64,000 nt of DNA from contig NW_027266275.1 of NCBI RefSeq assembly GCF_022045235.1, positions 36,084,001 to 36,148,000 on the forward strand. The letters run 5' to 3'. The notes beneath the pieces are model-generated. The model did no database searches. It was not told the DNA's origin and saw nothing but the letters and a program-made list of their open reading frames with translations. Source of the DNA: Haliotis cracherodii (lineage: Eukaryota). Shown piece after piece: positions 12,642 to 33,465 of the stretch (position 1 is the stretch's first letter; the number at the start of each line of letters is the position of its first letter). A program made the position numbers and the translations under genes.

Positions 12642-13990
12642 TGTTATATGTGCTGGTGTATGTTTGAATATGGGGTGTATGTATACTTTATTTGTTGATC
12701 AGTAATTAGGTGCAAATAGAATTGACTTGAGGTGAGGGGTTTTCAGTTGAGACAATTGCTTGTTATGAACAGCTTGTGATCTGACTGATTCAAGCGAGTA
12801 GCTTTTGTGTGCAGTTGTGTGTGTTAAAACACTTGTGTAGTAGTGGAAGTGCAATGGTGTTTGTAATTTGGTGATGCAACAGTCTTCTTTGTTTCCTCCT
12901 CCAGAAGAATCTATAATGTTACTCTGTGAAATGGCACCATGTCGGGGCTGACAAAAACTGAGATCATATTGATGAGCCTTCAACTATGTAGCACTGTGCA
13001 ACAACGATGTCTGATGCAGACTGAGATCATATTGATGCGCCTTCAACTATGTACCACTGTGCAACAACGATGTCTGATGCAGACTGAGATCATATTGATG
13101 CGCCTTCAACTATGTAGCACTGTGCAACAACGATGTCTGATGCAGACTGAGATCATATTGATGCGCCTTCAGCTATGTACCACTGTGCAACAACGATGTC
13201 TGATGCAGACTGAGATCATATTGATGCGCCTTCAACTATGTAGCACTGTGCAACAACGATGTCTGATGCAGACTGAGATCATATTGATGCGCCTTCAACT
13301 ATGTAGCACTGTGCAACAACGATGTCTGATGCAGACTGAGATCATATTGATGCGCCTTCAACTATGTACCACTGTGCAACAACGATGTCTGATGCAGACT
13401 GAGATCATATTGATGCGCCTTCAACTATGTAGCACTGTGCAACAACGATGTCTGATGCAGACTGAGATCATATTGATGCGCCTTCAACTATGTAGCACTG
13501 TGCAACAACAATGTCTGATGCAGACTGAGATCATATTGATGCGCCTTCAACTATGTACCACTGTGCAACAACGATGTCTGATGCAGACTGAGATCATATT
13601 GATGCGCCTTCAACTATGTAGCACTGTGCAACAACGATGTCTGATGCAGACTGAGATCATATTGATGCGCCTTCAACTATGTACCACTGTGCAACAACGA
13701 TGTCTGATGCAGACTGAGATCATATTGATGCGCCTTCAACTATGTAGCACTGTGCAACAACGATGTCTGATGCAGACTTGGAGAATCCTACCCCTGGTGA
13801 CTATGTCTTTATGTTTTAATAATGCGATATTGCTTGGCCGAAATTATTGCTAGGATGGCCTTTGTTATTATGTATGCCAGTATTGTGGGTAATGACTAAT
13901 TCTTAGTGTAGAATTAATAAACTTTTCTTAACTGCAGTTAGATTGTTGTGTAATCCATTTTTATTGTGCGAGTGGTTTTGTTTGACCACA
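12642..13990 (+). mobile_element. LTR-like insertion carrying the 63-bp tandem array
   Basis: Starts TG exactly where the PLE RT breaks, AATAAA near 13915, ends ...CACA. No clear TSD. Confidence 0.35.
12957..13778. repeat. 63-bp minisatellite, 13 near-identical copies
   Basis: Unit actgagatcatattgatgcgccttcaactatgta(g/c)cactgtgcaacaacgatgtctgatgcag. Confidence 0.97.
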
Positions 13991-13991
13991 A

Positions 13992-15783
13992 CTCAATTCA
14001 ATTCTTTCTTGTATGAAAGGCCACAGGCCCATATAGAATGGAGTTACATAACATATTTATAAGATACAAAGTCAAGGTAACAATTCACTTCATAATGCAT
14101 GATGTATGTTCAAAGCCAGGTGATGATGTGTTAGAAGATCTTATAGCATTAAAATGAGAAAAAGACCACTGTGGCAAGTACTTGTTTCTCAGATTTTCGT
14201 ATATAGGGCCAATAAACTTAAAATGGTATTCATCTTCGACAACAATATCACAGAATGGGCATAACATTTTTCAACAGTTGAAAATCTCCCTGTGTGAATG
14301 TTTAGATCATTCAGGCCAAGTCTAAAATGAATAATGATGTTACGAAAATTCCTGTACCGTAAGTTTGATAAATAACATTCTGGTTCAAGCAATGACTTGA
14401 AGTGGCGATTAGTATCATATCTTGAACTTTCGTAAATATCTGAATACTGATGAAACATATCAATGGCACGCATGCGAAAGTACTTAATGAAAACATGTGC
14501 ATTACCAATTGTCTGGGAGAGCCAGATGAAACCAAAGCCATATGTAAAAAGCAATGTAGTATACAAGAAGCCCGCGTGTTCTTTCCAAGACTATCTAGGT
14601 GTACAAGCATGTTGTAGGCTTTCTTAGGTAAACGGTGTTCAGGCTTTCTTTATTTTACATCAATACTTCAAGCAACGAGTGTACCCTTACCTTTGAAACA
14701 ACATTTCACTCTTGCGGGCACTCGACCACCTCTACCAAATATAACACTATTTGTTTTATCAAGATGAATACTAAGTTTGCATTTATCTAAATATTCCGAA
14801 AGTATGCCAAGCTGCTTCTGCAGACCAATAATAGTACTAGACATCAAAATCGCATCATCTGCAAAAAGTAGTATGAAAAGTTCTATTATGTCAGGGAAGA
14901 GCTGGACGCCATGTCTACCAGACTGCATGATATCAACATATAACTCATTTATAAAAAAAGAGAGAAAAGTATAGGACTTAAAACACTTTGGCGTAAGCCT
15001 ATCGGGTGATTAAAAAAGTCACTTTTAGTATCACCACAGCAAACAAATAAGTTTACATTTGCATACATTGATTTAACAATAGTAAAACATTTTGCTTCCT
15101 AAACCCTTATTTTTCAAACAGCTCCGCAATTTTGCTCTATTTACAGAATCAAATGCCTTTTTAAAATCAACAAAGGCCACGTACAGCTTGCATTTGCTGT
15201 TGGATAAATATTTCTCAATGACTGCATACAAAGTAAATATGTGGTCAAAAACCGAATAGTCCTTTCTAAATCCCGCTTGTGTTTCAGGAATCAAATCTCT
15301 CATATTTGACCACTGTGTCTATTATTGATGATAGTGAGTGAGTATGGTTTTACGCCGCTTTTAGCAATATTCCCGCAATATCACGGCGGGGGACACCAGA
15401 AATGGGCTTCACACATTGTACCCATGTCGGGAATCGAACCCGGGTCTTCTGTGTGACAAGCGAACGCTTTAACCACTAGGCTACCCGACCGCCCTTATTG
15501 ATGATAGAAGTAAATGCTTTACAAAGAATACTAGTGAGAGATATACCCGATAACTGTCAGGATTGTTTACGTTTCCATTCTTAAATAACGGAATAATAAT
15601 AGATTTTGACCAGACAGAAGGAAAAACACCTGTATCAAAAATCAGATTGAAACATTTAACCAGAAAAGGCATAATATCAGGTAATGAGTACTTAAGCATT
15701 TCAGCTATAACACAATCAGCCCCTGCCGATTTCCTGTAATTTGGAAGTGCAACAGCCTTATTTGTTGCCGCCTCCTGTAGTAT
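13992..15783 (-). mobile_element. 5'-truncated decayed non-LTR retrotransposon (RTE-X or CR1/L2-group RT)
   Basis: Frameshifted RT motifs KSAGAD, IIPLFK.G, QAGFRK, FVDFKKAFDSV, LFADDA. C-terminal CPFC..EDEYHF. 3' ggcctgtggcc hairpin and (AATTG)n tail near 13992-14030. Confidence 0.88.
15334..15494 (-). mobile_element. tRNA-derived (ACTC)n-tailed SINE (HaSE-like), representative of at least 8 copies
   Basis: A-box tagcctagtgg, B-box ggttcgattcc, TSD ttattgatgatag. Other copies 18207-18370(-), 38018-38185(-), 44972-45140(-), 49410-49572(-), 57130-57291(+), 60510-60677(+), 61124-61296(-), most with clear 10-14 bp TSDs. Confidence 0.92.
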
Positions 15784-16587
15784 CTTTAACAACATTCTCC
15801 ACAACAAGCTCCAAAATAGAATTGAAGACATAGATACCAAACACCATAGACAGCATCATGAAGCTAGGCTCCAGCTGCTTTGTCTCATCATATTTTACTT
15901 TCAAAACCAAGATCTACAATCAAATCCTCGCACTGCTTATGGGCTCCCCTCTATCTCCACTCATCAATGAAATCTTCATGACACCCTTTGAAGAACCAGC
16001 CCTCTCCACAGCACCATTCCAACCCCTCTGCTGGTACCGAAGAGTAGACGACACATTCACCACCATAGCCCACCAGAACGACCCCACAGAGCTCCTAAAA
16101 CATCTCAACGTCCAGCACCAGAGAATCCCGTTCACCATGGAGGCCGAAACCAAACTCTTCCATTCCTAGACGTGTCCCTCCAAACCACAGATGGACTAAG
16201 AACATCAGTTTTACTGCAAGCCAGCACACAGCGTACATCCACAACAACTCCTGCCACCCTCCCCAGATAACACAATCCATCATCTACACCCACACTCGAC
16301 CCTCATTCCCTCAGCAGTGAACTGGACCATCTTAAGGAAACAATCACTGCCTTCAACAGTTACCCTGCCCACCTAGTCTCCAAAACCATCCGCAAGACGC
16401 CCAAGAACTCTGATCACAGACCTTAACCTGCCCCATCGCCCATCAGAATCAGCATACTCTACCAACGCCTGGTCACTCATCAGATTTCCTGCCTCATCAA
16501 GAACAAGGTCAACATACTCACCTTTCCTAGCGGCAAGTTCATCAAGACCTATCTACAAGCCAATGGTAGAGGCACAAGCAGAGGGTG
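15784..16587 (+). pseudogene. Penelope-like element RT, middle fragment
   Basis: YFTF..KIYNQ..L.MGSPLSP, WYRRVDDTF, FTME.E, PFLDV motifs, decayed. Confidence 0.85.
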
Positions 16588-18585
16588 TATATTGAACAAC
16601 AAAAGTTCCTGTGACTTTGAATAAGATTTGTTGCAAAGTTTTTTACCAAATCTGAAACAATTTCGCTTTGCAACAGATAAAAGACTCCTGTAAGTGTTCA
16701 AATGGTTTAATTTGCCATACTGACTTCAGAAAATGCGTGATTTCATAAAAAAACATGAACATGCCAAAATGACAATTTAAAAACAATAGCGTGTGTGTCC
16801 ACCTCTGGTTGCGATGCAAGCAACACATCTTCGTCTCATGGAATGGACCAGGCGTCGCACAAAGTCCTGTGGGATATCTGTCCATATCTGCTGGAGTATG
16901 TTTCGAAGTTCCTGGAGTGTATGTGGAACACGTGGTTAACGTCGCAGGCGCCGATCAATCTCATCCCACGTGTGCTCGATTGGTGAGAGATCAGGGGAGC
17001 GAGCCGGCCAGGGGATGACATTCACGTTGTATTGTTGAAGGGACGCCTGAACAAGTCGAGCAATACACTTAGTGGCATAAGCCCAAACTCTCCCTGTCAG
17101 CATCCCCCCTCTCACTGAATCTGATACTCTTTAGCCATGATCTTATCAGTTGTTCCCCTGCTCCAGTGAAGCAGGCATGGGCAAGCTGGTCCGAGTTTGT
17201 TTACATTAGGGCACTAGTGGCATGGGCCAGCATGCCACACTAGGATTAAGACATAACACTCTCCAACCTAAACCAGAGTGAAGGAAACTGCAGAGACCAC
17301 ATGGAATCATCCAGACCACATGGTCACTTGTGGAATAAAGTAGTGCAACACTCATCTATTGTTTTGAGAAAGAAAGTTATTGAATTGTCAGCGAAATCAA
17401 CGAAAGAAAACGCATTTTCTCCATCCTCAGGTAAGCATTTGACGTAATCATTAATTTTACATGATTGGAATACAAAATATGCTCTAATGTGTATGTTTAT
17501 GTAAACTGATTATGTGTATATGGTGTATGTCGACTATATTGCCTTTGTTCTGTAATAGAATGTTTTGCAATTAACACATCTTATCTTGTCTTACCTACAG
17601 AAGAGTTTCGATATATTTATATTGTATTTGTAACAAACTAAATACCTAAACAAATCAGATGAATCCCACATATATGTAAATTTAATTTAGGTCTGTGATC
17701 CCTCTTATCCAGATGTTTCATATACTTATTACATATACCTAAACTAGTCTGTTGATTTGTAGACAATCAGAATGTGGAACTTGTATGTACTGTAATTTTA
17801 TACCCAATGAACCTATGTTAATACATGTAAGTGATCATAAATACTGTGGTCAAAGTAGATGACGTTTTAAAGTATTTCAGTGCATAAACATAATATTCAT
17901 TATCCGATAAAACTAACCAAACCCTTTCCATATTCATAAGAAATCTCAGTCTATTGTACGATTATGACTATATAATGAACATGTGTTTTAGAATCACTGT
18001 CAGATTGTGATGATACCAGGTGTTCGCCACATTCGTTACCATTCACATATATTACCAGTTCAAAAACATTTAACAGCTTTTAAAGCCTATTCTGATATAA
18101 AAAGATATGGACTAGATGGTCACTAATCACTGAAATAGTGTAATTCCGTAATTATACAATATTCATCACCGAAATCAAAGCTAGGTGAACCATCTAGTTA
18201 CTGGGATGAGTGAGTGAGTATGGTTTTAGGCCGCTTTTAGCAATATTCCAGCAATATCACGGCGGGGGACACCAGAAATGGGCCTCACACATTGTACCCA
18301 TGTCGGGAATCGAACCCGGGTCTTTGGCGTGAAGAGCGAACGCTTTAACCACTAGGCTACCCGACCACCCTAGTTACTAGGATGATTATAAGAACATGAT
18401 ATCATCTGGATAAGCTAGTTCTTCATGTATTCTCATAATTTCCAAAATAAACAAAATACTTAGAATTTTATACACATATAGATACACGTCTTACACAGTG
18501 AATAACACATGTATTCAATTATTAGCTGTTAAATAGTGGTCAATTTCACTTCCAGGTATGATGAAATACAAGGAAAGAAGGTGTC

Positions 18586-21500
18586 TTGGGTTCTGCTCAC
18601 ATTTGGGACTGCCTTCAAATCATACAAGATGAAAACACCTCAGAAAAATGGAACAAATTTGAGGATTTTATAAATTTCCTGAAACAGCACCAGACTTCAG
18701 AAGATGATGTGAAAGATATCCGAAGAGACAATATATTGCGATCATTGAAGAAACATAGAAATTGTGTTCGTGTGATTGAAAAGAATACTTGCAAGAAAGG
18801 AAACGTGCTGTCTGTAAATGAGACTCAGTTAAATTTCAAAGCATTTTTAAGATACTGTTTTGATCATTGTGACCGTATCAAAGTATGTGGCAAAGTTGTC
18901 AATGCAGTTCAATCATGGGCTCTGTCAGAAGGAAGTTCAAGCGCTGATGCTCTCTTTGAATTTTACACTGTTGTGAGCAGGTCGGTCTTTAGATATGATA
19001 CAATTGATAAACTCTTGTGTGACAAAATACATTGTGTTGAAATTCCTTGTTTGTAAAAATCATACGAAAAGAACTTTGAAAAGGAAGAATGGGAAAATAT
19101 TAAAATATTTGAAGTTCACTTCTGGAATAGCATCAAAGATGAGTCACCAGTTCATTCTTCTGGCTACAGTAGTGATCTTTCAATCACAAAGCGTCAGGAA
19201 CTGTTTAGTCAGTGTAAATGAATTTATACATTGAAAGAAACCCTACTCTACTCAAGTAAAGACGCAATTAAAACCAACTCTAATAGAAAACTGGCAGCAG
19301 ACAACATTGAGGGAGTTGTGTTAGAAGCAAAGACAAAGCACCTCCCGTCATTGCTTGATGAAACAATCACAGATCTACTGGAAGACAACTTTCCAGGTAC
19401 ATTCTATCAAGCTGTTTGTCTAGACTGTGAGCAGATCTGCAAGGCAAAGCATTCCCCTGGCATTCACGTCTACTTGGAAGTGACGGAAGATGCTGGTGAA
19501 ATAAATATTGACGACACTTTTACTTTGATTAAAAGTGAACTTGCTTGTCATCACAAAGAAAGGTGTGCAGAGGTTGTGATTTTCGAAAGCAAGACCTTCA
19601 AAAGTTACAGCATGGGTAACAGAGTCACCAAAAGGTTCCATCTCCGCGATGACGTCAGTCAAGGTAATCTATCCCGAAGGACATCCACATTCAAATCAGA
19701 AGACTTCTTTGAAGAAAGTGAAGAGGATCTGAGGGATAGCATTTGTCCGACATGCGCGCCAGTGCTTACACACACTGATCCGTTGGACTTACATTCATTT
19801 GATATCTTCACAGAATGGAAATTTTTAGTACCCCTACCTTTCCAAATTGTTCTTGAAACATTCATTAATTTCCAAAGTGTAAGAAAGTCTCAGAGGCCTG
19901 ACAAATTTGTAAAGGAAAGGATAGAGAAGCTGTACCTCCTTTATGATGCCATGTTGAACATCAACAACAAGAACTATGCTGGCATTAATCAAGAAATTAA
20001 CACCGATGAGCTTTCAGCGTCTTACCACAGCATCACAAATGTGTTTTCTGTAACATCACATGGTGGGCTTACTGGCAGTCTGAAGAATGCAACTGAAAGA
20101 CTACAGAGACAGGCAGACCCTGACAAGTGCTATTATAACACTTTCATAAAAAAATATGACCTTGACTATGAAGCACAAGATGGCCACAAGCACCAGGTTT
20201 CCCTTCAAGATTGCCACCTTATTTTCTGTTTGGACAATCTTGTTCGGTTGTCCTTTCACAGGGATCCAGACAGAGGAGATTCTAGGTCCTCACAAATATG
20301 CACTTTGCCAATAACCTTGATGGGAATACCAAGGAATACTGCAGTTCTCCAAGAATGGCATGATGACAACATATGTGATGGCACATCCACATGTCAATGC
20401 AGAGAAGCAGTCAAGATGAACAAAGAGGATTTAAAACAGTTGCAGAAGAATCCCAAAGGGCCGACTTTCAAATGAAGCTTACTTGGAATTTACATTACCT
20501 GTGGTCTGAGATCGACCAAACAGTAGCCGCATCACATTTGACAAGTGCAATACATAATATATTCAATGGGCATGAAGCTGCTGGAGGACAGGAAGACACA
20601 ATGGAAAATGTTGTATCTGAAGAATGGCATGACTCATACAACAACGAACTGGACACAGTGCTAAGACAACTTGACAAAGAAGAAGGTCTGATGGACATGT
20701 CTCTTTCTGACATTATGTCAGATACTGAGTTTGACGGTAGTTGTGAAAGCTTGATGCCAGATTCAGACTCAGAATACAATCAGAATGAGATGACAGATGT
20801 TGATCTTGAGCTTGCACAGATGAATGACAGTTTAAGTGTTTTGAATTTAGGATGCTCGCCCCTACCTAACAATCAAGGAGACATGTCATCTGTGGACCTG
20901 GAGGCCAATGTCACTGTCATTGAAGATCTCATCTCCACACTGGGATACACAATTTACAAACCCCCCTCTGTCTTGGTAAGGCATCCACCTCCAGCAATTG
21001 GCAGAGATGATGACATTCATAAAATGCGTGACATTTTGAATGACATACTGGTCAAATCAGCAGCAAACCCTGATACATGTCGCATTTTGTTTGCTCCTGA
21101 CAACAAAATAGGAAAGTGCCTTTTCAAGCTGATGGATGAAGACATGCAATTTAGGAAATATCTACCAGAATTTCCACTACTACATCTGCGGAAGTCAAGG
21201 ATTGTGAACCTTTGCAGTGCATACAAAGATGCTGGCCTCTTTCATATCCTGAGCTACATGCACGACACGACTGAAGACTGGAAGAAACTCGTCAGCACAG
21301 AAAACATTGAAGCAGCAACCCACAACGTCCGAAGAGTTTCCTATGCGCTTCACGTAGCCTTCATGATAAAATTCCTTTCAACAAAAGCCCCAAATGATGC
21401 AAAGATTATATTTAACTCTTTGAAGAAGAAAGCTCTGACGATTGAAGCCAGATGGATGGAAGATTATTCCGTTTTCATGAAGGAAGGAAGTAAAACAAAT

Positions 21501-23991
21501 GCCACATTTTCTTTGCATGCAGAAATGCTGAGTCACTGTGATGAAATTCTTGCCCTGGCAGTTGCAGAGAGGATTGGAGGTCCAGACGGTTATAATCATA
21601 TGCTTTCAGCTGTTAAGACACCACTGCCATTTTCTTTCCTAAATGGAGCAAGTTCATATGAAGCCTTTTGTTGTCGACTGCTCTATGAGCACTACAGTTC
21701 GGGTCCATTTCATCAACATATGAAGCAATCTTTCTTCAGCAAGTGAAGGTAATTTTGCCTTAGATACCCAACGAGAAATGGAACATAAAGATGCACTCAA
21801 GGGTTTCAGGCCAAGATCTACTGTTACATCTGTTCTTCCGCGGATGTCACTGATAGGTTCTTGGATATTGAATCTTTCAGGGAAGAAAACAACACAAGCC
21901 AAACAAAGGAAAATGTCAACAGTAAAACATGGCAAGACCTTAATCACATCTATCCCACTGCTGTCCTTATACTTAGACAAGGAGGACTTGACATGAAGGC
22001 AGAGACCATTCCAAGAAATGTCTATGCACCTAAGCCAACACCACTGCCAGAAGTTGCACTGGACAGGAACACCTATGAAGTTGGAAGTTATCTGATTGAC
22101 AAATTTGTATTTGAGAGCAATTTCCATGAGTCTCAAGAAGATGAAAAACCTTCAATTGACTCAAACTCAAAGGCTAAAGAACTTGTGAAGAAAGTTCAAA
22201 CAATGAAGGGCGTGACAGTAAGAAGAATGAACTGCAAAAGTCAGGTACCCACTGAGGAAAAACAAGTTAAAGAAATAAAAAGGAAGAGAAAAGTAAAGTC
22301 CCTCCTGGGTATTGCAGAAAGCTTGTCATCAGAAATGAAATGTTGTCAGGCAGTTGTCAAACCCGACTGTTCAAAGTCAGCAGTGCAAAAGTCAACTGGC
22401 ATGAAAAAAGCGCTTGTTCATCAACTTGAGAAGCTACTGCAACAGGACCATCAGGATGGAGGCACCACCACAGAAGACATCCTAAAAGAATTACTTCAAA
22501 GTGGAATGAAAGATTTTCCAGTTGGTTTGCTGTCAAACGTATCAGCTGCTATTGTTGAATTTGCAGGACAAAAATTCAAGACAAGAGGGAGATCTGGCCA
22601 GGAATATTTGAAGATGGTAGAAGATAACATAAAGAAAATCTTGAGACACATGCCATCTACAAAACACATTGTGATATGTGAGGAAAAGTACAAGTTCACT
22701 CCTGATGACTTCAAGGCTTCAACAAGAGTGAATAGAACCAAATCGCAGATTCAGTCAATTTCCCTCCTGAAGAGGGGCGACGAAATCATCAGCAGTTCAG
22801 TTTTTGACAAAAAGGCAGTTGTCGGAACTGAAGAAGGTAAATCCCTTATAAGCTGTTTTCTGGTCAAGTCACTGGGTATTGACATAGAAATCAAACTGGA
22901 CATTGACAGTGAGTGGATCACTGATGGCTGCATCTGCGACAGAGAAAATAACTGTAACTGCTCGACAAAGTTTGCAATATCAACCCGAAATATATTTTCA
23001 AGGGAAGGCTTTGTGCAGCAAATTAAGCTTGAGAATATTCAACAAAGGAAAGGAGAGGCGGAAATGTCCCAAATGGACTGGCTGGTGCACATCTCATCCA
23101 GTCTTGAAGCTACAGATGAAGTTGTGTCAGTCGTGACATCTGGGGACATTGACGCCATTTCAATTCACCTTTTTGCTCTTACAACTCTGTGGCCTAGGAA
23201 GGATGACAATTCTTTCAGAAACAAAGTCCATGTTTTACTGCAAAAGCCAGGTGGTGTTGATGTCTATTATATCACTGGCATTATTATGGTGCTGGAGAAG
23301 AAACTTGGGCCAAATGCAGGAATGAAAGTTACCATGGGACTATGCCTTGGGGGAAATGACTACTTGCCAAAGTATTCTGGAGTTTCTCACGACAAGATCC
23401 TGAGAACATTCGTCGACAATGCCAACTTTTCCAGAATTTGTTCTGTTTTGATCAGCGAGGCAGTGGTCTTGTGTCAAAGGAAACCCACCATGAACTCATA
23501 AAGTCAATATATTGTCCAAGCACGTTGGCTTCTCAAAAGCTGACCTTTGAAGAAGTACGTCAGCTATCAATGAAACATCCTAAGAAACAAGACTTTGCTA
23601 GACCCCAAACTTGGCTTCCCCCAAAGAGTGCACTGGACCAGATTTGTCTTCTTGTAGATTATCAGGTCGAATATCTTTTTCTAGCTGGCAACAACTCAGC
23701 AATTCTCCCAAACTTCCTTCAAAAAGGCTGTCTCAGAAAGAACAAAGAAGGGATGTGCATTACTATCTTGGAGATGAAGTGAGCACAGAGAAACTGGAGG
23801 ATTTTAAATTAAATTCCAGAAGCGACACTGCTGAAACGTATCATGGACTGCAAAATACCACAAAAGAAACTGGTCAAAAGAAAGAGGACACTAGAAGATA
23901 TCACCACAAAGAGTTGCCAGGAGAAAACAGAAACCAGTTACATCAACTCCAAGGTACACGTATATGCCATTTCTCCTGTCTTCTACATTAG
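18586..23991 (+). pseudogene. Academ-type transposase with XPG/FEN1-like nuclease, multiply frameshifted
   Basis: Consecutive overlapping ORFs. Candidate catalytic motifs CLDN (20233), APDN (21099), PEFPLLH, LDTQREMEH (21760-21786). PIN/XPG-like GEAE, SGDID, LGGNDYLP..GV (23050-23390). Confidence 0.78.
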
Positions 23992-25505
23992 AAGTATTAC
24001 CAGTAAAATACTGTATGCATCATGCTTTTAATAATTCAAATAATCTGGTTTACTATTATTTTGATTCACAGTATTGTACTTATGTCTCTTATATAGCAGG
24101 TTAAGGAACTGCTTACAAACATATAAATTTTCATTGTCGCAGCCAAAATGCATTCAGTCAACACTAAATGTTTTTCCTTTTTTCCTTACTACAGGAAATA
24201 GTACCACAGATTCCTGTTCTGTTTACCAACCTGTGGAATAAACTATTCATCGTGATGTGTTTGAAGTTGGAACATGGACTGATCAAGAAAATGTGATAAT
24301 ATTCGCTGCCATACTGAAGATGTGTCAAGTATAGTGCAAGGCAAGGAGTGCGAGTATATCAAGCAGATCCAAAGGGTGCAGATATTTATTTGCTGAACAT
24401 TTGGTACATTAAATACATCCATTTTGTGTTTGGTACAGTCACGGGAATGTATGAATGTACTTGCTCTCGTACTAGTAGTGGGCAGTAAGACCATGTCTAT
24501 AGCATCTGTTGTTTTATAAAGTCGCTAACAGACCCTTTAGAGATGTTACTAATTATGACAAATCACCAAAATAATGCAAGTGTCCACCCCTAGACGTCGT
24601 CATATACCGGTAGCTGGAATATTGCCGAGTGCGGTGTTAAACAACAAACACACAAATATGCATCATGATATTAATGCGAGTAGCCCCGCCTGAACTATAA
24701 AACCTAATCGGCGAACTATTACAACAAAACTTTTGCCATCTTCACAAACTTAACTTCAACTGCTTGACATGAAATGAAAGCATGAGATTCAAATATCGTA
24801 TAGTTTTTTTTTATTCTATAAGACTGCTTTATGTTGCCGGACTTATTTAACTACGAAGGTGTGCAGCGTTTTCCTTATAATGTTAAATCTTTAAATTATC
24901 TGACAGGTTACCAAGAACGAAGACGACGTCACAAACGGTTGGCAACTGTCATAAACGGGTGATCAACCTGTGTAAACAAACTGACCATACCTGAAGCACT
25001 GTCCACGTCTAGCACTCAAGGCCATGTGCAGTGAATTTGACATGACATGACAATGTAATCCAATTTGTCCAGATAAAATGGGTCACTTGCATCTTGGTAT
25101 TATTTTCATACTCACATACTCACATTAATTTCATGATTTACAGTATGTCATTTGCTGGATCCACTTTGTATGTATTGTTTCTGCTACATGTAAAAACTTG
25201 ATTTATCAATTATGAAAATTTGTTTGAATACTTCATTAATGTTTACTGTGTTACTTTGATATTTTCATGCATAAATGACTTAATAAAAATTTCATGGTAA
25301 ATGAGTTATATTTTGTAATGTGTCTTCTCTGCTTTGGAAAGCATTAATCAGGCCACTATGTTATGCACTATTAATGTATATTTAAATGGTTTAGCTACAA
25401 GTTGACCAATATTTATTCTTTTAATCTGCAGAAAATTTAATGGTGTTTCAAAAGTAGTTTAAAAACATTAAATATCAATATTTTAATAGCAGACAATTGT
25501 TTCTT

Positions 25506-25513
25506 CACACACA

Positions 25514-25572
<59 letters not shown>
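25506..25572. repeat. (CA)n microsatellite
   Basis: Direct observation. Confidence 0.97.
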
Positions 25573-25575
<3 letters not shown>

Positions 25576-26638
25576 GTCTGCTACAGATGAGCTTGTGGTC
25601 ATTAATCAGTTGTGACAAGACGACCCCTGCTGATAGGGCTGATAGCAGGGAGTTTTGGGGGGATTGGAATGCAGTTTGCGGTTCCTCACTTTGAGGATTT
25701 CTGAGACCCTTATTCCACTAACTGAATATGAAGCCGGGCGTTGTCATGTTGAAAGGTAATGCCTGGGCCATGACGACGCTAAAACTGTAGAACAACAGGG
25801 CCGATGATCTTGTCACGGTAGCGCTGTCCATTGAGATTTCCCTCTACCACTATCGAACGGGTCCTCTGTCTTGCTGTAATCCCACCCCATACCATAACGC
25901 TGCCGCCCCCGAACTTATCTTCTTCCATGACACAATGATTGACGTCACGTTCACCTCGACGTCGGTACACTCGAATCCGTCCATCGCTGTGGCTGAGGTG
26001 AAAACGAGACTCGTCAGTGAATAGAACTTGTCCCCACTGCATGGCCGTCCAGCGTAGACGCTGTCTGCACCACTGTAGACGTGCTTGACGGTGGTTTCCT
26101 GTCAAAATGGGACGTCTGGCGGGTCTTCTGGCGACAATCCCTGCACATCTGAGGCGACGACGTACGGTTTGTATAGATATTCGTCGAAGGCCAGGGATGC
26201 TTCTTGCAGTCACTATTGCTGGCTGGAATCGATTTCGTAGGTGTTGTTCGAATCCAGTTGTCTTGTCGGTTATTGGTTACGCGTAGCCTGCCACTCCGAG
26301 TATGGTTTCTGACTGCATTCGACTGTTGCCAACGTTGCCATAAACACCAAATGGTGTTTCTGTGGACGTTTAATTGTCTTGTGGTTGTTATCAGCACGAT
26401 GCGAAACAATGCATATGGAATCCCGTTAAAGCACATGTTTTCATACTCATTCTTGGATAGTGAAATGCATGGGGCTTGCATAAAAGTCAACTTTTGCATG
26501 GAATGCATGCTTTTCTGTAGCAGTTGCGTTTTTGTGACTTGATTCCATACATGTACTACAATATTGAAAACCAAACTTTACTTGTTTGAAAAATACACTA
26601 AAATATTGGTGTCACAGGATATTTTGTTGTTGAGTATA

Positions 26639-26960
26639 TGTAACAGATCCCCTGCAACTGTGGCCACCAATACATTGGAGAAATCCCAAGACCTCTCAAC
26701 ACCAGACTCTAAGAACACCAGACCTCTGTCAACAAACTTGACCTAAAATCCGTTAGCAACTATCAGCGTCAAATATCTGTTTTTTTTCCCTTGTTAAGTT
26801 TCAACCTTTGTTATCTTATTACTTTTGTTGTTCTTACAGGTACATTTATTTGTTCTCTGCCTCATAGCATTCATTCACCCAATGAAGGAGTAAGTATATA
26901 TTCCGAAACGTTGTGTTCCTCATGATAAAGAAGTTGATATCCATAAATTCTTTTCCTTAA
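26639..26960 (+). mobile_element. Penelope-like element 3' end: GIY-YIG endonuclease fragment and pseudo-LTR tail
   Basis: Joined across the Tc1 it reads RGCM*QIPCNCGHQYIGE..RPLNTRL*EH, followed by a T-rich tail with a hammerhead motif. Confidence 0.85.
26876..26915 (+). ncRNA. Minimal type I hammerhead ribozyme motif, degenerate (CCAAUGA core)
   Basis: cac-CCAATGA-a-ggagta..tattcc-GAAA-cg-tt-gtg in the PLE tail. Confidence 0.55.
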
Positions 26961-27777
26961 ATGTTTAATTGTTTTCTATTTTCACAGCTCAACGAAAATA
27001 GTACAACTGGAGTGAACATCGTCAAAAAATACATCTCACAAATGTCACTCAAATGCCAGACCTATTTAATAGGATTGGCATTTATTTGATCTGAGGTTTC
27101 TGCAAATAAATATGAATCAGAATGTCTTGAATGTTCTTGAAATAAAACAAACGATCGAATCACGCATTGGTGTTTTAATAGTGGTAACTGACCCATACGT
27201 TTTGTCTCCCCTTTGGTTTTCGTTTGTGTTTATATGAAGTATGAAATGGAAAATATACGCACGGATAGATGGAATCACTGTAAAGTTACCAGATTGGCTC
27301 ATTCCAAGTGACCCAGGGTATAGGTTGAACAGGCTGTGTTGGTGGGAGTCAAGCTTATTGTGGTAAAAAGTCCTCATCGCTGAGAGAATCCCCAAACGAA
27401 GTAGTGAGGAGGTTTTCAAAGGTGATAGAACTTTATGTCTGCTTTAACGACAAAGGCTGCACAATCCCGAACTTCACAAATAACACAGAGGCCAGTCTGT
27501 GCGATCGCAAATGTCGCAGGTTTTCGTGCCATGTACTTTCTCAAACATCAACACATCGCTTTATGTTGGCACTACAGTGGATGCGAATCCTATATCGCAG
27601 CACAGAAATAAAAGTAGCAAAGAGTTGCTTCCATTCCAAGTTTCAACAGTACACTTTATGTCATGAATATATATGGCCATGGTTTTCAAACCATTGTTGA
27701 AGCTTGAAACCTTTTTTTTCAAAAATAATTATGGAAGCTCTGAGCCACCGTCTCAAGGGAGGTCTTATCTCCCACAG

Positions 27778-27945
27778 AATACACAACATGAGGTGTCCGA
27801 AAAAAGGAGGTGGTTCAGGTGTATCAAGGAGGTCAATTATGATCATTCTGCCCTTCACGTCAATGTCTTTGGTGTAGTGTTCTTGCACTATTCGCCAGTA
27901 GACCTGATACAAGGTCTTGTTTACAAGCTGGTTGATGATGGTCAT
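27778..27945 (-). pseudogene. Ras-like GTPase fragment (switch I to G3), copy 1
   Basis: TIINQLV...Y..IVQEHYTKDIDVKGRMIIIDLLDTP aligns without gaps to AIINQLI...Y..TIQERFITDIDVNGRHVVLDIFDTP of the intact gene. No P-loop. Confidence 0.75.
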
Positions 27946-28089
27946 AGACGATACATACTGACGTCAACGTTGTGTGGAAACAACACCACCATCCCTGTCT
28001 GACAAGGATGGCCACTCCCTGTCTGTCGTCATACACTGATCAACACCATCAACAAAAATAGTATCCTAAAATCATAATATACATACATA

Positions 28090-29329
28090 TACTTTTCAAA
28101 AAAGAAACTTGTCATAGATGTAAAACCACTTTTGACCAAATATCTAAAATAATTACGTTAAATGAGAACCAAATAAGTCAAACAGAAAGAGGACGTGTCT
28201 ATAATTCGCGAAAACACATGCAAAGCACATAAACGTAGCGTTTGGGGATCAATTTTACAGCTTCATCCAAACGCAACCGCCTGTAAAAAACGTGCAGCAC
28301 AGGATCCTGCATTTAGGCATGCAGGCCCCCCTGCTGAATGGGTATAAAAATCCACATCAACGGCTGTTCATACAGTCCTTATAACGGCAGTAGAGGCGGT
28401 GACAGAATGCCAAGACTGAATGTAGCTCAACGGAACAACGCCATTGGGAGATTACAAGCTGGATCAACACAGCAAGAAGTGGCCAGGCACTTAGGCGTAT
28501 CGAGACAGACAATCTCCGCACTGTGGACCCGATACAACAACACCAACCGCGTCGACGACAGACCAAGGTCAGGAAGACCAAGGGTGACAACCCAAGCACA
28601 TCGATACATCCGGCTGCGACACCTCCGAGGCCGCACTACCACAGCAACGTCTACAACCACACAGATCCCTGGGGTACGCAGAATATCAGATCAAACGGTA
28701 CGCAACAGACTGAGGGAGGCTGGACATTATGCACGAAGACCTATTCGACGTCATGTATTGACCCCACGTCATCTGGCGGACTGTCTGCTTTGGTGCCAAC
28801 AGAGGGTTAGATGGGCACGTGCAAGGTGGAGAAATGTCCCGTTTCCTACTCACACGTGCTGATGGGCGCGCACATGTCTACAGACGTCGGGGTGAACGTT
28901 ACGCCCCCAACTGTGTGCAGCAGGTTGTCCCATTTGGCGGCGGGGTGTCATGGTATGGGCCGGAATTCATCACGGTGGTAGGACGCCTCTCGTGCATGTA
29001 GCAGGTGCATTGACAGGTGTGCGTGTGACTTGATCCTACAGCCTTACGTTCTTCCTCACGGCAACGTTCATGACTTGATTGCATCTATGGGTCGCCGGCG
29101 TCAAGTGGTGATTGATGCACGTGTTGGCACAACCGATACTGACATTTTCTGTACCCATGTGACATTAACTGTATCGTGTGTCTGTCTAGGTGACACGATT
29201 AATGTTTTGAACATTGTGTACATTGATCTTCAAACAGTGTTTCAATCATGGTTTCTGTGTCCTACTTTGACACAATCGCATTATGTTACATTTTGAAAGT
29301 CAGTGTCAAGCTTCTTTTTTTGAAGAGTA
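28090..29329 (+). mobile_element. Tc1-like transposon, internally deleted
   Basis: TA flanks, TIRs tact(t/c)ttcaaaaaagaa.cttg. Transposase MPRLNVAQRNNAIGRLQAG...RPRSGRPRVT from 28407, with the catalytic region deleted or frameshifted. Confidence 0.9.
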
Positions 29330-31320
29330 TATATGCACATAATTACACCCACCCCCCACCCCCCATTTATCCTTCCAACTAGCCATACACTCAACTATAT
29401 ATGCACTCATTTACATACATATATAATACATTTCATTTAAATGTTAATCTAAAACAGAAGTTCACAAGACACAAAACGCTATGTACTAACTGAGAAGGAT
29501 TATTCTCTTGAACATTTGTTGTAGTGTTGAAGCAAGAGTATATAGTATGCAGTTTGGTTTGAATAACCAGCACAGATGGTCTATACTGTAGTATTCATGT
29601 AATGAAAGTCACTATTCAGTTTTGCAAGATTTGGCGATGAGATTTGTTCGCAGCACATTATTAAATGGACACTGTCAGGGAATTAACTCTCAACTTTAAC
29701 CCCGCTACTATTACAGAGAGCACACAGCCTTTGTTCAATAGGTGTCTTAGGTTTGGCAGGACATCCAATTACAGGTGATCACGTCAGAACAACCTTTCGC
29801 GAACTATGACCGACCAATGAAATAACTAACAGGAAGTTAACGTTAGCCACTTAGAAGCAGCTTTCCCAGCTTTGCGGTACTAGTTTCAAACTTGCGACTT
29901 CCATTCCAGACTAAGTATTTCGAATAAGTCATACAGTCCGTAACAGTTGTTTTGTGTTGAGCTTTAGAAGTTGCATGATTAGAAAACATATTCCGTTAAC
30001 AATGTAACATAACAATATGAATATTTCATTCATATTTTTTATCACGTGTTTGTATCGTTATCTATCGTGTAGTTGTCCGATTTTCGACCACGAACGTTCA
30101 TGTAACCGAGGTTGTGATGGCAACAAGAAGGTACAACACAGGCTACGGGTGTGAGTCTTTATTGCCTTAGTACTATTATGACACCCTGTAATGTACAAAA
30201 CAATAAGATTATAAAAACAGTAGTACACAGGTTCCATACACACATATATAAATACAATACACAGCACCTTTCATTTAATATAAACAAAGTCCTTTAATGA
30301 TTACATGAACTAATAATCAATGATATATAAAATCATTATCTTAACCCTGAAGTAAACAAACGATTTATCAGGGGCGATAACTCGATCCCGACATGGTCCA
30401 TGGTTCTAAAATACAATGAACATTACAAATACAATTACCACTTTGTTGTAACTACTATATTAATTCATTAACTGATCATACATTTAGTATGATACATTAT
30501 TTACAAAATATATTTCATGACACGACAAACATGTAAAGTATCCGTACCCTGTGGGTGACACTGGGGTGTTTGTCCTCTCAAGACAGCCGCCTTCCTTGGA
30601 CGTTAAGTAGCAATAAGCACACTCCTAATTACAGAATCAACTCTGAATAAGTGAAAGATAAAGAATACAATTGAAGAATTGAAGGAAAAATAACTGACTA
30701 CACACTATCATACAATGATTGACATTGCATATAAATATCGTATTTACACAATTATAAGAATCAACGCATTCACATCGAATTATTTATCCCAGATCTGTCC
30801 AAGTCCAAATGGTTGACGGACTTCTGAATTGGTGTAGTGTCAAGTGCAAGATGGATGAAAAGTGCACAGTTTGAACAAGCCAATGAAAACAAGGCTTGGG
30901 TTAGAACAAAGAGAAGAAACAATGACACAAACATGGACCAACCCAACCACCCTCTACATTATAAATAAACTAATCCAGAAGCCCATTATAGATATTGAAT
31001 TAAGAACCTACTTTCCTAACAACTTAAAAATAATATTACAAACCTAAAGGACCTCAAATAGATAAAACATATGTACAACAAAACTGTATGTTAACACTTG
31101 TGTCTGCCACATTGATACTACTTAATTTCGTTTATCCGACATACTCCTTAATCCGACATAATCATATGCAACCAACAATGTCGGATTAACGGGACTTGAC
31201 TGTATATGTATATTATGAATTTAGGATACTATTTTTGTTGATGGTGGTGGTCAGTGTGTGCCGTCAGGCAGGGATGGTGGTGTTGCTTCCACACAACGTT
31301 GACGTCAGTATGTATCGTCT

Positions 31321-31488
31321 ATGACCATCATCAACCAGCTTGTAAACAAGACCTTGTATCAGGTCTACTGGCGAATAGTGCAAGAACACTACACCAAAGA
31401 CATTGACCTGAAGGACAGAATATTCATAATTGACCTCCTTGATACACCTGAACCACCTCCTTTTTTCGGACACCTCATGTTGTGTATT
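31321..31488 (+). pseudogene. Ras-like GTPase fragment, copy 2 (inverted duplicate)
   Basis: Same peptide as 27778-27945, within an inverted copy of about 27590-28086 at about 31203-31675. Confidence 0.75.
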
Positions 31489-33465
31489 CTGTGGGAGATG
31501 AGACCTCCCTTGAGACGGTGGCTCAGGGCTTCCATAATTATTTTTGAAAAAAAAGTTACAAGTTTCACAATGGTTTGAAAACACGGCCATATTCATGACA
31601 GTTGACGTACATAAAGTAAACTGTTGGAACTTGGAACGGAAGCAACTCTTTGCTACTTTTATTTCTGTGCTGTGATAACAGGAGTAAGACGCTTAAGTAT
31701 CAGTTGCTTATTACACTTAGTTTCAAAATAAAGAATGCGGATTCAAAATAACTCTGAATTTATGATAATCAGAGCTAAATTTCAAAATATATGACAAAAT
31801 CATGACAAACAACAGCAAAATAACAGGCCTGTGAGGTGTGAAACTACATACTCTTAGGCGATAAGTACCTCCCTGGCGAGTGTTGACGTCGTTTTTCTGT
31901 TTTTGATCAGTCACGAAGTCGGCGAGCCTGACCACCCGTTCCCGTTAGTCGCCACTTACATGTACGACAAGCATCCTGCAGTTTTGGTCGGTTGACGATG
32001 TATCACTTCACCGCACACAGTTGAGATATAGATTGTTCTTAAATCATGTTTAATAGATCTAGATGAAAAGAACAAGAAAAATGGTATAGTCTGTATTTGA
32101 TGACAATAGATAAACACATGGTGGAAACAGATTCAGACATTTAGATTATAAAAATTCAATAGAGACATCTGACAAGGTTCGATTCCAATATCAAGACAGG
32201 AGAGAGTATATGCTTCCGTCAAATGAGAATTTCTCCCCTCATCATTAAAAATAGGATCCGTGAAGATCCGGGGTGGAACAGGTCTTCAGTAACCCATCCT
32301 TGCCGCAAAAGGACACTGTGCTTGTCGTAAGTGGTGACTAAAGGGATCGGTTGATGCATGTCATCGTATCCCAAATCCGTGGATCGATGCTCATGATGTC
32401 AATCACTGAATTGTCTGGTCCAGACTCGATTATTTACAGACCGCCGCTATATAGCTGGAATATTGCTGAGTGCGGCGTTAAACAACAAACCAACCAAACC
32501 AAATGTTTCGATTGTCTGTGGTCTGTGACTTTATGCCCTAAAACTAGTGCTAGCCCACTGAGATAAAAGGCCATATTGTTTAACCCTCTCAGTGCCGAGA
32601 GCAAGACAGATAAAGAACAAGTACCATCTTTTAACATTTACTGGTGTGACGCGGCCGGGGATCGAACTAACCAACCGCTCTCCGGGCATAGTGGGGCTGA
32701 TATGAGTGATGTTAGAGATAAAACCTCCTGTTGGTATTGTGCTCACAATTTGGAACCAACCCTTTGGGATTCCAGTAAGAATATTGGTCCCCAGTAACCT
32801 ATGCTTGTCGCAACAAGCGTCTAAAAAGATCAGGTGGAAATTCTCGCGGACTTGGTTAATATCATTAATCGATGCTAATGATATCAATCACTGTATTGTC
32901 TGATCAAGATAAGATTATTTACAGATTACCGTCACATTAGAATATAATGAATGCAGCGTTAAACAATATTTTTCATTGAATATCTAGTAAACTACATGCT
33001 TCAGATAAAACAGTTGCCAACCAGGCACCTAAATTAATTACATTTTATTTTAATCAAGTGGGCACAGGTCTTCCAGTCGTCTAAGGCGCCGTAATGAAGA
33101 GTTGCATCCCTTGGGCACGCCCAAAACCTATGATCGTGAGTTCGAATTCTGGTTCGCCTAGATTATGTTTCTAGGTTTGTCAGCACCATACCTGTGTTCG
33201 TGTGTTTCACCAAAGTGGAAAACGTCTAAGACCTGCATTGCATTTGGCTTGTGATATTACTGGAATCGTGTTCAAAGCAGCATTAAACTCAACCCGCTCA
33301 CTCGCCAAACAAAGATTGCAGGTGATGATATATATAGAAGAAATATTCTATAAAAAGACATGTTCAATTGCCTGTAAGAAATTTATTTTAACATTAACAC
33401 TTGCAATCAACAACAAGAATTACTCATGCACAAGCCAATAACAAACAGATTTATTCATAGACGTC

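Follow-up and report, generated by a model that had tools for sequence, protein, structure and literature searches.

AcademX is said, by Kapitonov and Jurka in 2010 and by Kojima in 2020, to be a lineage within the Academ superfamily. Its proteins carry a C-terminal Cys8 zinc finger, and DUF6589 is taken here as the mark of ordinary Academ-type transposases. The modules that transposases acquire are usually DNA- or chromatin-binding ones. In the available excerpt of PMC10045372, AcademX elements are described as having terminal inverted repeats and target duplications of 3–4 bp.

Like AcademX, the lineage described here encodes one large protein in which a DDE transposase is followed by an XPG-type motif set, and its elements have inverted ends and 4-bp duplications. 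It is unlike AcademX in having a predicted FAAL-type lid at the N-terminus in place of Cys/His finger-like modules, an acidic disordered insert between the first and second Asp, and a CxC..CxC cluster inside the putative nuclease. One copy lies in the window, that is, the whole 64,000-nucleotide stretch of Haliotis cracherodii DNA analyzed. No paper joining an Academ-type transposase with a captured adenylate-forming or DIP2 domain was found in the literature; the lineage itself may already be included in Kojima 2020, Yuan and Wessler 2011, or Repbase.

The window copy and its mobile relatives

An open frame of 417 aa on the + strand (19222–20475) contains the residues quoted by an earlier note on this DNA, and R-x-H-L-R-D (19633–19650) and the first Asp motif CLDNL (20227–20241) lie in one shared frame, as that note had claimed. 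Its placement of the domain at 19291–19671 was right as to location but not as to the end, the folded domain running from about 19303 to 19698, slightly further 3'. The lid segment has 17 matches in its own genome, among them P0001 (G000:C3), an unbroken frame of 1801 aa with the domain order lid, DDE transposase, XPG-type motif set. Identity of the window to P0001 is 43–76% across 18598–23954. The window ORF is a fragment of a larger coding region and, given its stops and five frame changes relative to P0001, the window copy is dead. The features are collected in Table 1.

Table 1. Features of the element in the window, with the evidence for each.
Feature	Position	Strand	Evidence
Likely left end of the element	17064..17081	+	starts TAC, like family A
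Short high-copy repeat within the element's 5' part	18207..18370		at least 40 genomic matches at 93–98%
Transposase N-terminal part (P0001 1–238), stop-broken	18565..19302	+	tblastn, P0001 4–601 in one frame
Predicted FAAL/DIP2-type ANL C-terminal (lid) subdomain	19303..19698	+	AlphaFold, Foldseek, VIA, motif counts
Cys/His cluster within the lid	19417..19467	+	motif counts over 159 domains
R-x-x-L-R-D motif, also in the last DIP2 domain	19633..19650	+	residue counts
CxxC pair and helical region up to the transposase core	19744..20226	+	C379 and C382 in 86/86 rows
Predicted DDE/RNase H transposase core, spread across three frames	20227..21780	+	conservation, VIA
Putative core residues: first Asp, second Asp, His, Glu	20233, 21099, 21183, 21775	+	triad assignment putative
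Acidic disordered linker inside the transposase core	~20560–20900	+	
Putative XPG/FEN1-type nuclease region	22554..23363	+	motif pattern
Coding-region C-terminus with basic tail, without Cys8 finger	23423..23954	+	tblastn to P0001 1625–1801

When six related repeats were compared, the match started at 17061–17064 in all of them. The C45 copy of the same genome matches 17059–20300 at 80–93% and lacks, at the corresponding place, the short high-copy repeat, which we take to be SINE-like. Neither a matching right end within window positions 23950–32000 nor a target duplication of the window copy was found. The first 200 bases of the element (17064–17261) are common to about 39 shorter repeats at 75–96%, the remainder of which is unlike the window; in two of these repeats the end is a long internal stretch resembling a palindrome. 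The N-terminal part at 18565–19302 gave no family match, and its model secondary structure comprises an alpha/beta domain and a long helix. Residues 1–111 of P0001 (window ~18565–18930) have a strand-helix order that we take to be like that of a Bro-N/KilA-N DNA-binding domain; none of 64 members matched a family of this type in Pfam or PHROGs.

Other features were seen elsewhere in the window. Transposase fragments at 25779–26577 and 27593–31677, the second between inverted arms of ~490 bases, are presumably Tc1/mariner-like, judging by their motifs. A 307-aa open frame at 12930–13853 is made of ~14 tandem 60-base units, and decayed reverse-transcriptase fragments on both strands at 14189–16270 are assumed, again from motifs, to be LINE-like.

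Two mobile families were characterized. In family A, the ends are imperfect (TAC...GTA) and every copy (3/3) carries a 4-bp duplication, two of the sites being TA-rich. The seven copies of family B examined, 8–9 kb long and 87–99.7% identical, all terminate in 18-bp inverted sequences (CAG...CTG) and show 4-bp duplications (7/7). Copies of family B with perfect ends and introns lie at G000:C12, C23, C34, C38, C67, and C31 (L022–L036), and a long CA-type repeat separates its two ORFs. Family B contigs in two of four public runs (from two studies), presumed to be RNA, join a GT donor to an AG acceptor lying 186 bases further along, the whole domain exon being spanned by one spliced contig; in the other two runs, family B is read through unspliced. 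Family B has likely been active recently. A decayed relative at L034:4252-4812 (G000:C6) has a 60-base stretch containing R-x-H-L-R-D tandemly repeated four to five times.

Identity and predicted fold of the N-terminal domain

Taken alone, the window segment matched no Pfam family or PDB chain at E<=10 and no ESM Atlas cluster. It scored 7.4 bits against a bacterial FAAL lid profile, a value reached by 0/500 shuffles; its score with the profile of DIP2 C-termini was 3.4 bits, reached by 9/500. A word-based search with P0001 200–400 returned 0/636 candidates. The window sequence alone thus gives a weak likeness, and family-level tests were therefore needed. An alignment, A1, was made of 31 homologues with the full segment and three copies from the own genome (34 sequences). 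In a PDB search, the A1 profile placed FAAL chains first (7r7e/f/g, E 0.002; 3kxw, E 0.078), and a second, largely separate alignment again placed FAAL chains first (E 0.007). GRK2 and IpgC also appeared in the PDB sequence searches and were set aside as short chance matches. In Pfam, the DIP2-like family PF23024 was matched by 8/34 A1 members (best 2e-4), the window not among them, PF24919 by 2/34, and PF14535 by 1/34, all under the curated cut-off where scores were shown.

The profile-profile comparisons drew on four sets: 159 domains from transposons, 107 lids from bacterial FAALs (picked by a single motif pattern, 117 before de-duplication), 56 DIP2-FLD2 lids, and 35 DIP2-FLD1 lids. Transposon lids matched the bacterial FAAL lids at a probability of 97.4% (E 1.5e-11) and the last DIP2 lid, FLD2, at 93.6% (E 2.1e-7), and the own genome's DIP2 last exon was matched at 94.4%; the figure for FLD1 was 1.3%, and reversed-profile controls gave 0.3–1.0%. 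The DIP2 exon of this genome is identical to a protein recorded at NCBI under Haliotis, in keeping with a host of abalone type. These profiles give good support to homology between the segment and FAAL/DIP2 lids. The DIP2/FAAL C-terminal likeness first proposed for the window is thereby borne out at the family level, in the profile-profile probabilities and in the predicted fold.

The AlphaFold model of the domain has a pLDDT of 88.2. Searched with Foldseek, as the earlier note had proposed, it gave a match list headed by FAAL C-terminal subdomains and containing, among the matches listed, only ANL enzymes (top 7r7e, E 5.8e-4, TM 0.65). VIA aligned the domain model to 7r7e with a Z of 14.8 (rmsd 3.2, 132 aligned), the first unrelated fold reaching 6.8; the lid inside a 1190-aa model (residues 239–366) gave a Z of 12.7 (rmsd 2.2). 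The VIA lists, too, had FAALs at the top and consisted largely of ANL enzymes. A viral fold library gave no match at E<=0.001, its top named rows being acyl-CoA synthetases. The segment is thus predicted, from these models, to be a FAAL/DIP2-type ANL C-terminal subdomain. Its predicted fold is common to the FAAL C-terminal subdomains of Synechococcus olefin synthase (7r7e), a Legionella protein (3kxw), and mycobacterial FadD23 and FadD32 over 115–132 residues, and it resembles FAAL lids in conserved H-x-P-x-x-x-E, Glu, His, Arg, and terminal Leu positions. It likewise resembles the C-terminus of DIP2 FLD2 (PF23024; Mug62-like PF24919), with profile matches of 93.6–94.4% and L-R-D common to both. 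FLD2 is also without the lysine (Glu in 56/56), but unlike the transposon lid it has shorter loops, is still joined to its core, and is 89–100% conserved in animals.

Unlike a FAAL, the transposon lid resides in a transposase, is without an adenylation core, hinge motif, and catalytic lysine loop, and has an added Cys/His cluster. When the DIP2 core (445 aa) and the 190 aa that precede FAAL lids were compared with 21 full-length proteins, the probability was 0.1–0.2%, and PF00501 was found in none of 29 homologues; in the model, the lid is flanked by helical stretches that run into the RNase H core. The hinge motif, presumably A8, occurs in 0/159 transposon lids and 111/117 FAALs, and the lysine-loop motif, presumably A10, in 10/159 and 109/117; Lys occupies the aligned column in 24/159 transposon lids and in 106/107 FAALs. 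The "AMP-binding" label of the earlier note was therefore misleading, the adenylation core being undetected and the catalytic lysine motif lost. According to the available excerpt of PMC8460268, the lid of ANL enzymes functions only against the core. With the core undetected, the hinge absent, and the lysine loop nearly so, catalysis is therefore unlikely, and to judge from these motifs the lid is likely not an enzyme.

The Cys/His cluster is found in transposon lids only and is missing from FAAL and DIP2, the strict pattern occurring in 52/159 transposon lids and 0/307 reference lids. His293 and at least two loop Cys occur together in 89/159 domains, His alone in 10, Cys alone in 3, and neither in 57, counts that include related sequences and hence are not independent. 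This pairing, 89 together and 13 apart, suggests that about half of the family has gained a zinc site.

The Asp of R-x-x-L-R-D is present in 136/149 transposon domains, 55/56 DIP2-FLD2, and 7/107 FAAL; its Leu, in 91/149, 55/56, and 0/107, respectively. His251 is present in 158/159 lids and His322 in 151/159, and His251, His322, Arg345, and Asp350 are retained in 88–99% of rows. Between the window and P0001, pN is 0.39 and pS 0.82 in the lid domain, which on this measure is under selection; against family B, the contrast in the lid is small (pN/pS 0.54 against 0.63). The lid is among the fastest-evolving regions, with a mean pairwise identity of 0.23 as compared to 0.51 in the core. No dN/dS value is given because dS is saturated in most pairs.

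Distribution and classification of the lineage

A total of 78 homologues was found, with Mytilus, Mactra, Mercenaria, Littorina, and Haliotis as named sources. The lid profile matched all 32 homologues having both flanking segments; 31 have the full-length lid, and Mytilus P0047, in which most of the lid is deleted, matched partially. The presence of the segment in other copies and species, which the earlier note had proposed to check, is thus seen in these 32/32 homologues spanning the region and in the 17 own-genome matches. A search with the lid profile returned 298 representatives at E<=0.001. Domain context was read for the best 150 of these, of which 142 were new (113 with transposon flanks and 29 fragments of 111–276 aa); the 148 weaker ones could hold the lid in other contexts. 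The lids of transposons form one side of a branch with support of 100/99. When 15 ordinary Academ-type loci (10 kb each, six frames) were searched with the lid profile, nothing significant was found (best E 0.076). Being in 32/32 homologues and undetected in these 15 loci, the lid therefore marks the lineage and not Academ-type elements generally.

The genome itself contains at least 47 DUF6589 matches, several of them in open frames of 1000–1850 aa, and none of the 47 falls on the lineage's long copies. About 17 DUF6589 fragments form a tandem array with ~5.2-kb spacing at G000:C12:46065000-46204000 (L186–L200). The 47 matches in this gastropod may be compared with the statement, in the available excerpt of PMC10294476, that Academ elements among molluscs are almost limited to bivalves.

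The model of residues 1–1190, made from 67/132 aligned rows, has a pLDDT of 85.9 and a pTM of 0.79. VIA matched it to the P-element transposase 6p5a over 431–1105 (Z 10.7, 372 aligned, rmsd 6.0), with weaker matches of model residues 431–1111 to ISCth4 (7.7), Hermes (7.1), and integrases (~7); Foldseek alone found nothing at E<=0.001. Like the Drosophila P-element transposase, Hermes, and ISCth4, the predicted protein has an RNase H core with a large helical insertion. It is unlike the P element in its accessory domains and shares 8% identity with it, and the match gives the fold class, not superfamily membership. From their conservation (83/88, 81/81, 79/79, and 76/77 rows), D542, D839, H867, and E1069 are inferred to be the catalytic set.

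The C-terminal third of the lineage protein had no Pfam and no PDB match. Its residues E1333, E1375, E1376, E1503, E1505, D1533, D1535, and D1604 are present in 31–32 of 32 rows, and their acidic spacing is one that we take to be an XPG/FEN1 nuclease pattern; Atlas leads for the region were Pox_G5 (0.82) and XPG (0.79). The XPG half in ordinary AcademX-type ORFs aligned weakly but collinearly with this region (360 columns, E 6.8e-4, as compared to E 0.6 for the reversed control), and ordinary Academ-type ORFs did so with the second-Asp/helical region (E 1.6e-3). The first-Asp region gave no alignment to these ORFs, and the profile probability of the lineage against them was 16–27%. The C-terminus of P0001 and of family B is a basic tail without a Cys cluster, the Cys8 finger being present in the ordinary ORFs L202 and L203; a TCR/Cys8 family search found one unrelated place only. 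On the basis of architecture, 4-bp duplications, and the weak collinear profile matches, the lineage is filed as a divergent AcademX-like branch, and its membership in Academ/AcademX is likely on these comparisons. The distinct Academ-like lineage that had been proposed from the window is thus upheld, in that the lid is family-wide and undetected in the 15 ordinary loci. L203:2139-7679 (G000:C45) is an intact Academ-type ORF of 1847 aa with Cys-rich N-terminal modules and no lid. In its nuclease half it comes nearer to the lid lineage than any other ORF of this genome (profile probability 65%), and the L203 type is possibly the sister of that lineage.

Origin and proposed role of the lid

We favor, at a probability of roughly 60%, a cut-and-paste transposon in which the lid lies ahead of the predicted DDE and likely XPG regions, was captured once, and serves as a non-catalytic structural or binding module. 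The capture would have occurred in an ancestor of the lineage. The lid would form part of an N-terminal arm, where ordinary AcademX-type proteins carry Cys/His finger-like modules, and may have a part in binding the ends of the element or in transposase assembly. A zinc site would have newly formed in about half of the family, and the XPG nuclease would process the cut ends.

The earlier note had spoken of a captured host domain. A FAAL/DIP2 lid in a transposase stands; host DIP2 is one candidate donor, favored by L-R-D but not separated from bacterial-type FAALs by scores, loops, and trees. An origin from a bacterial-type FAAL by horizontal transfer, which would leave the role unchanged, seems unlikely, although several observations point to it. 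The highest single scores of the transposon profile are those of bacterial FAALs (up to 49.5 bits, as compared to a DIP2-FLD2 maximum of 26.6), the loop lengths of the lid are nearer FAAL than FLD2, and the host DIP2 gene has an intron inside the lid domain where transposon copies have none. A constrained tree uniting both DIP2 domains also scores 7.1 log-likelihood units above the free tree (p-AU 0.74). The median scores are 22.7 for FAAL and 25.0 for DIP2-FLD2. Against such a donor, L-R-D is common to FLD2 only, consensus columns split six for FLD2 and five for FAAL, and no bacterial clade groups with the transposon lids in trees. These lie beside DIP2-FLD2 in a tree of 76 rows (SH 92) and in one of 40 rows from which nine long or odd transposon rows were excluded (90/42), an unstable placement. 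The FAAL set was drawn from one motif pattern, and the sampling was confined to bacterial FAAL, DIP2, and transposon lids, with fungal, plant, and protist FAAL-like sequences outside it. A search of the host DIP2 exon against plasmids gave no match.

Convergence on a small alpha/beta fold, with no descent from an ANL enzyme, is largely refuted. It could appeal to the 10–15% sequence identity between the lid and solved lids, to the best unrelated folds at Z 6.8–7.1 over both models, and to the lack of a database match for the window sequence alone; yet sequence-only profiles pick the same subfamily as the fold searches, the motifs are collinear over 113 columns, and the Z values of 12.7–14.8 are far above the unrelated rows. 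That the lid is passenger cargo with no role in transposition, retained merely by being in frame, is very unlikely: its full length in 31/32 homologues, across lineages with saturated synonymous sites, the near-invariant His251 and His322, and the confident predicted fold outweigh its low conservation, the deletion in P0047, and the lack of a lid in ordinary Academ-type elements. It is also quite unlikely that the lid mimics host DIP2, docking on the DIP2 adenylation core or a partner and so linking the transposase to a lipid or chromatin pathway or disturbing one. R-x-x-L-R-D is a putative surface motif of the transposon family and the last DIP2 domain, not of FAALs, two trees set the transposon lids beside FLD2 without strong support, and FLD2, the second FAAL-like domain of DIP2, is described as itself degenerate in the available excerpt of PMC9342972, all of which would suit a mimic. 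The DIP2 C-terminus, however, is 89–100% conserved in animals and transposon lids are 23% identical among themselves, which is unexpected for the mimic of a fixed surface, and the hinge that positions the lid on the core is lost.

Returning to the captured, non-catalytic module, a wider proposal is possible though doubtful. An unnamed, recently active XPG-bearing DDE branch may have swapped its N-terminal zinc fingers for a lid derived from the degenerate second domain of DIP2, a lipid-activating enzyme, and rebuilt zinc-binding on it, with the lid contacting a host factor. If this is true, the subdomain of a metabolic enzyme would have been repurposed as a part for transposition control, the candidate contacts being the core of DIP2, one of its partners, and the ends of the element. 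The gain does not imply new chemistry, since the lid appears catalytically dead. Having no Pfam signature, the lineage is easily overlooked when mollusc repeats are annotated. Deletion tests are practical, given one copy intact in a single ORF and a spliced family of many near-identical copies, and the lid offers a direct way into accessory regions that have gone unstudied in Academ-like transposases. An adenylate-forming-enzyme lid that is free-standing and fixed throughout a lineage would be an unexpected gain for a transposase.
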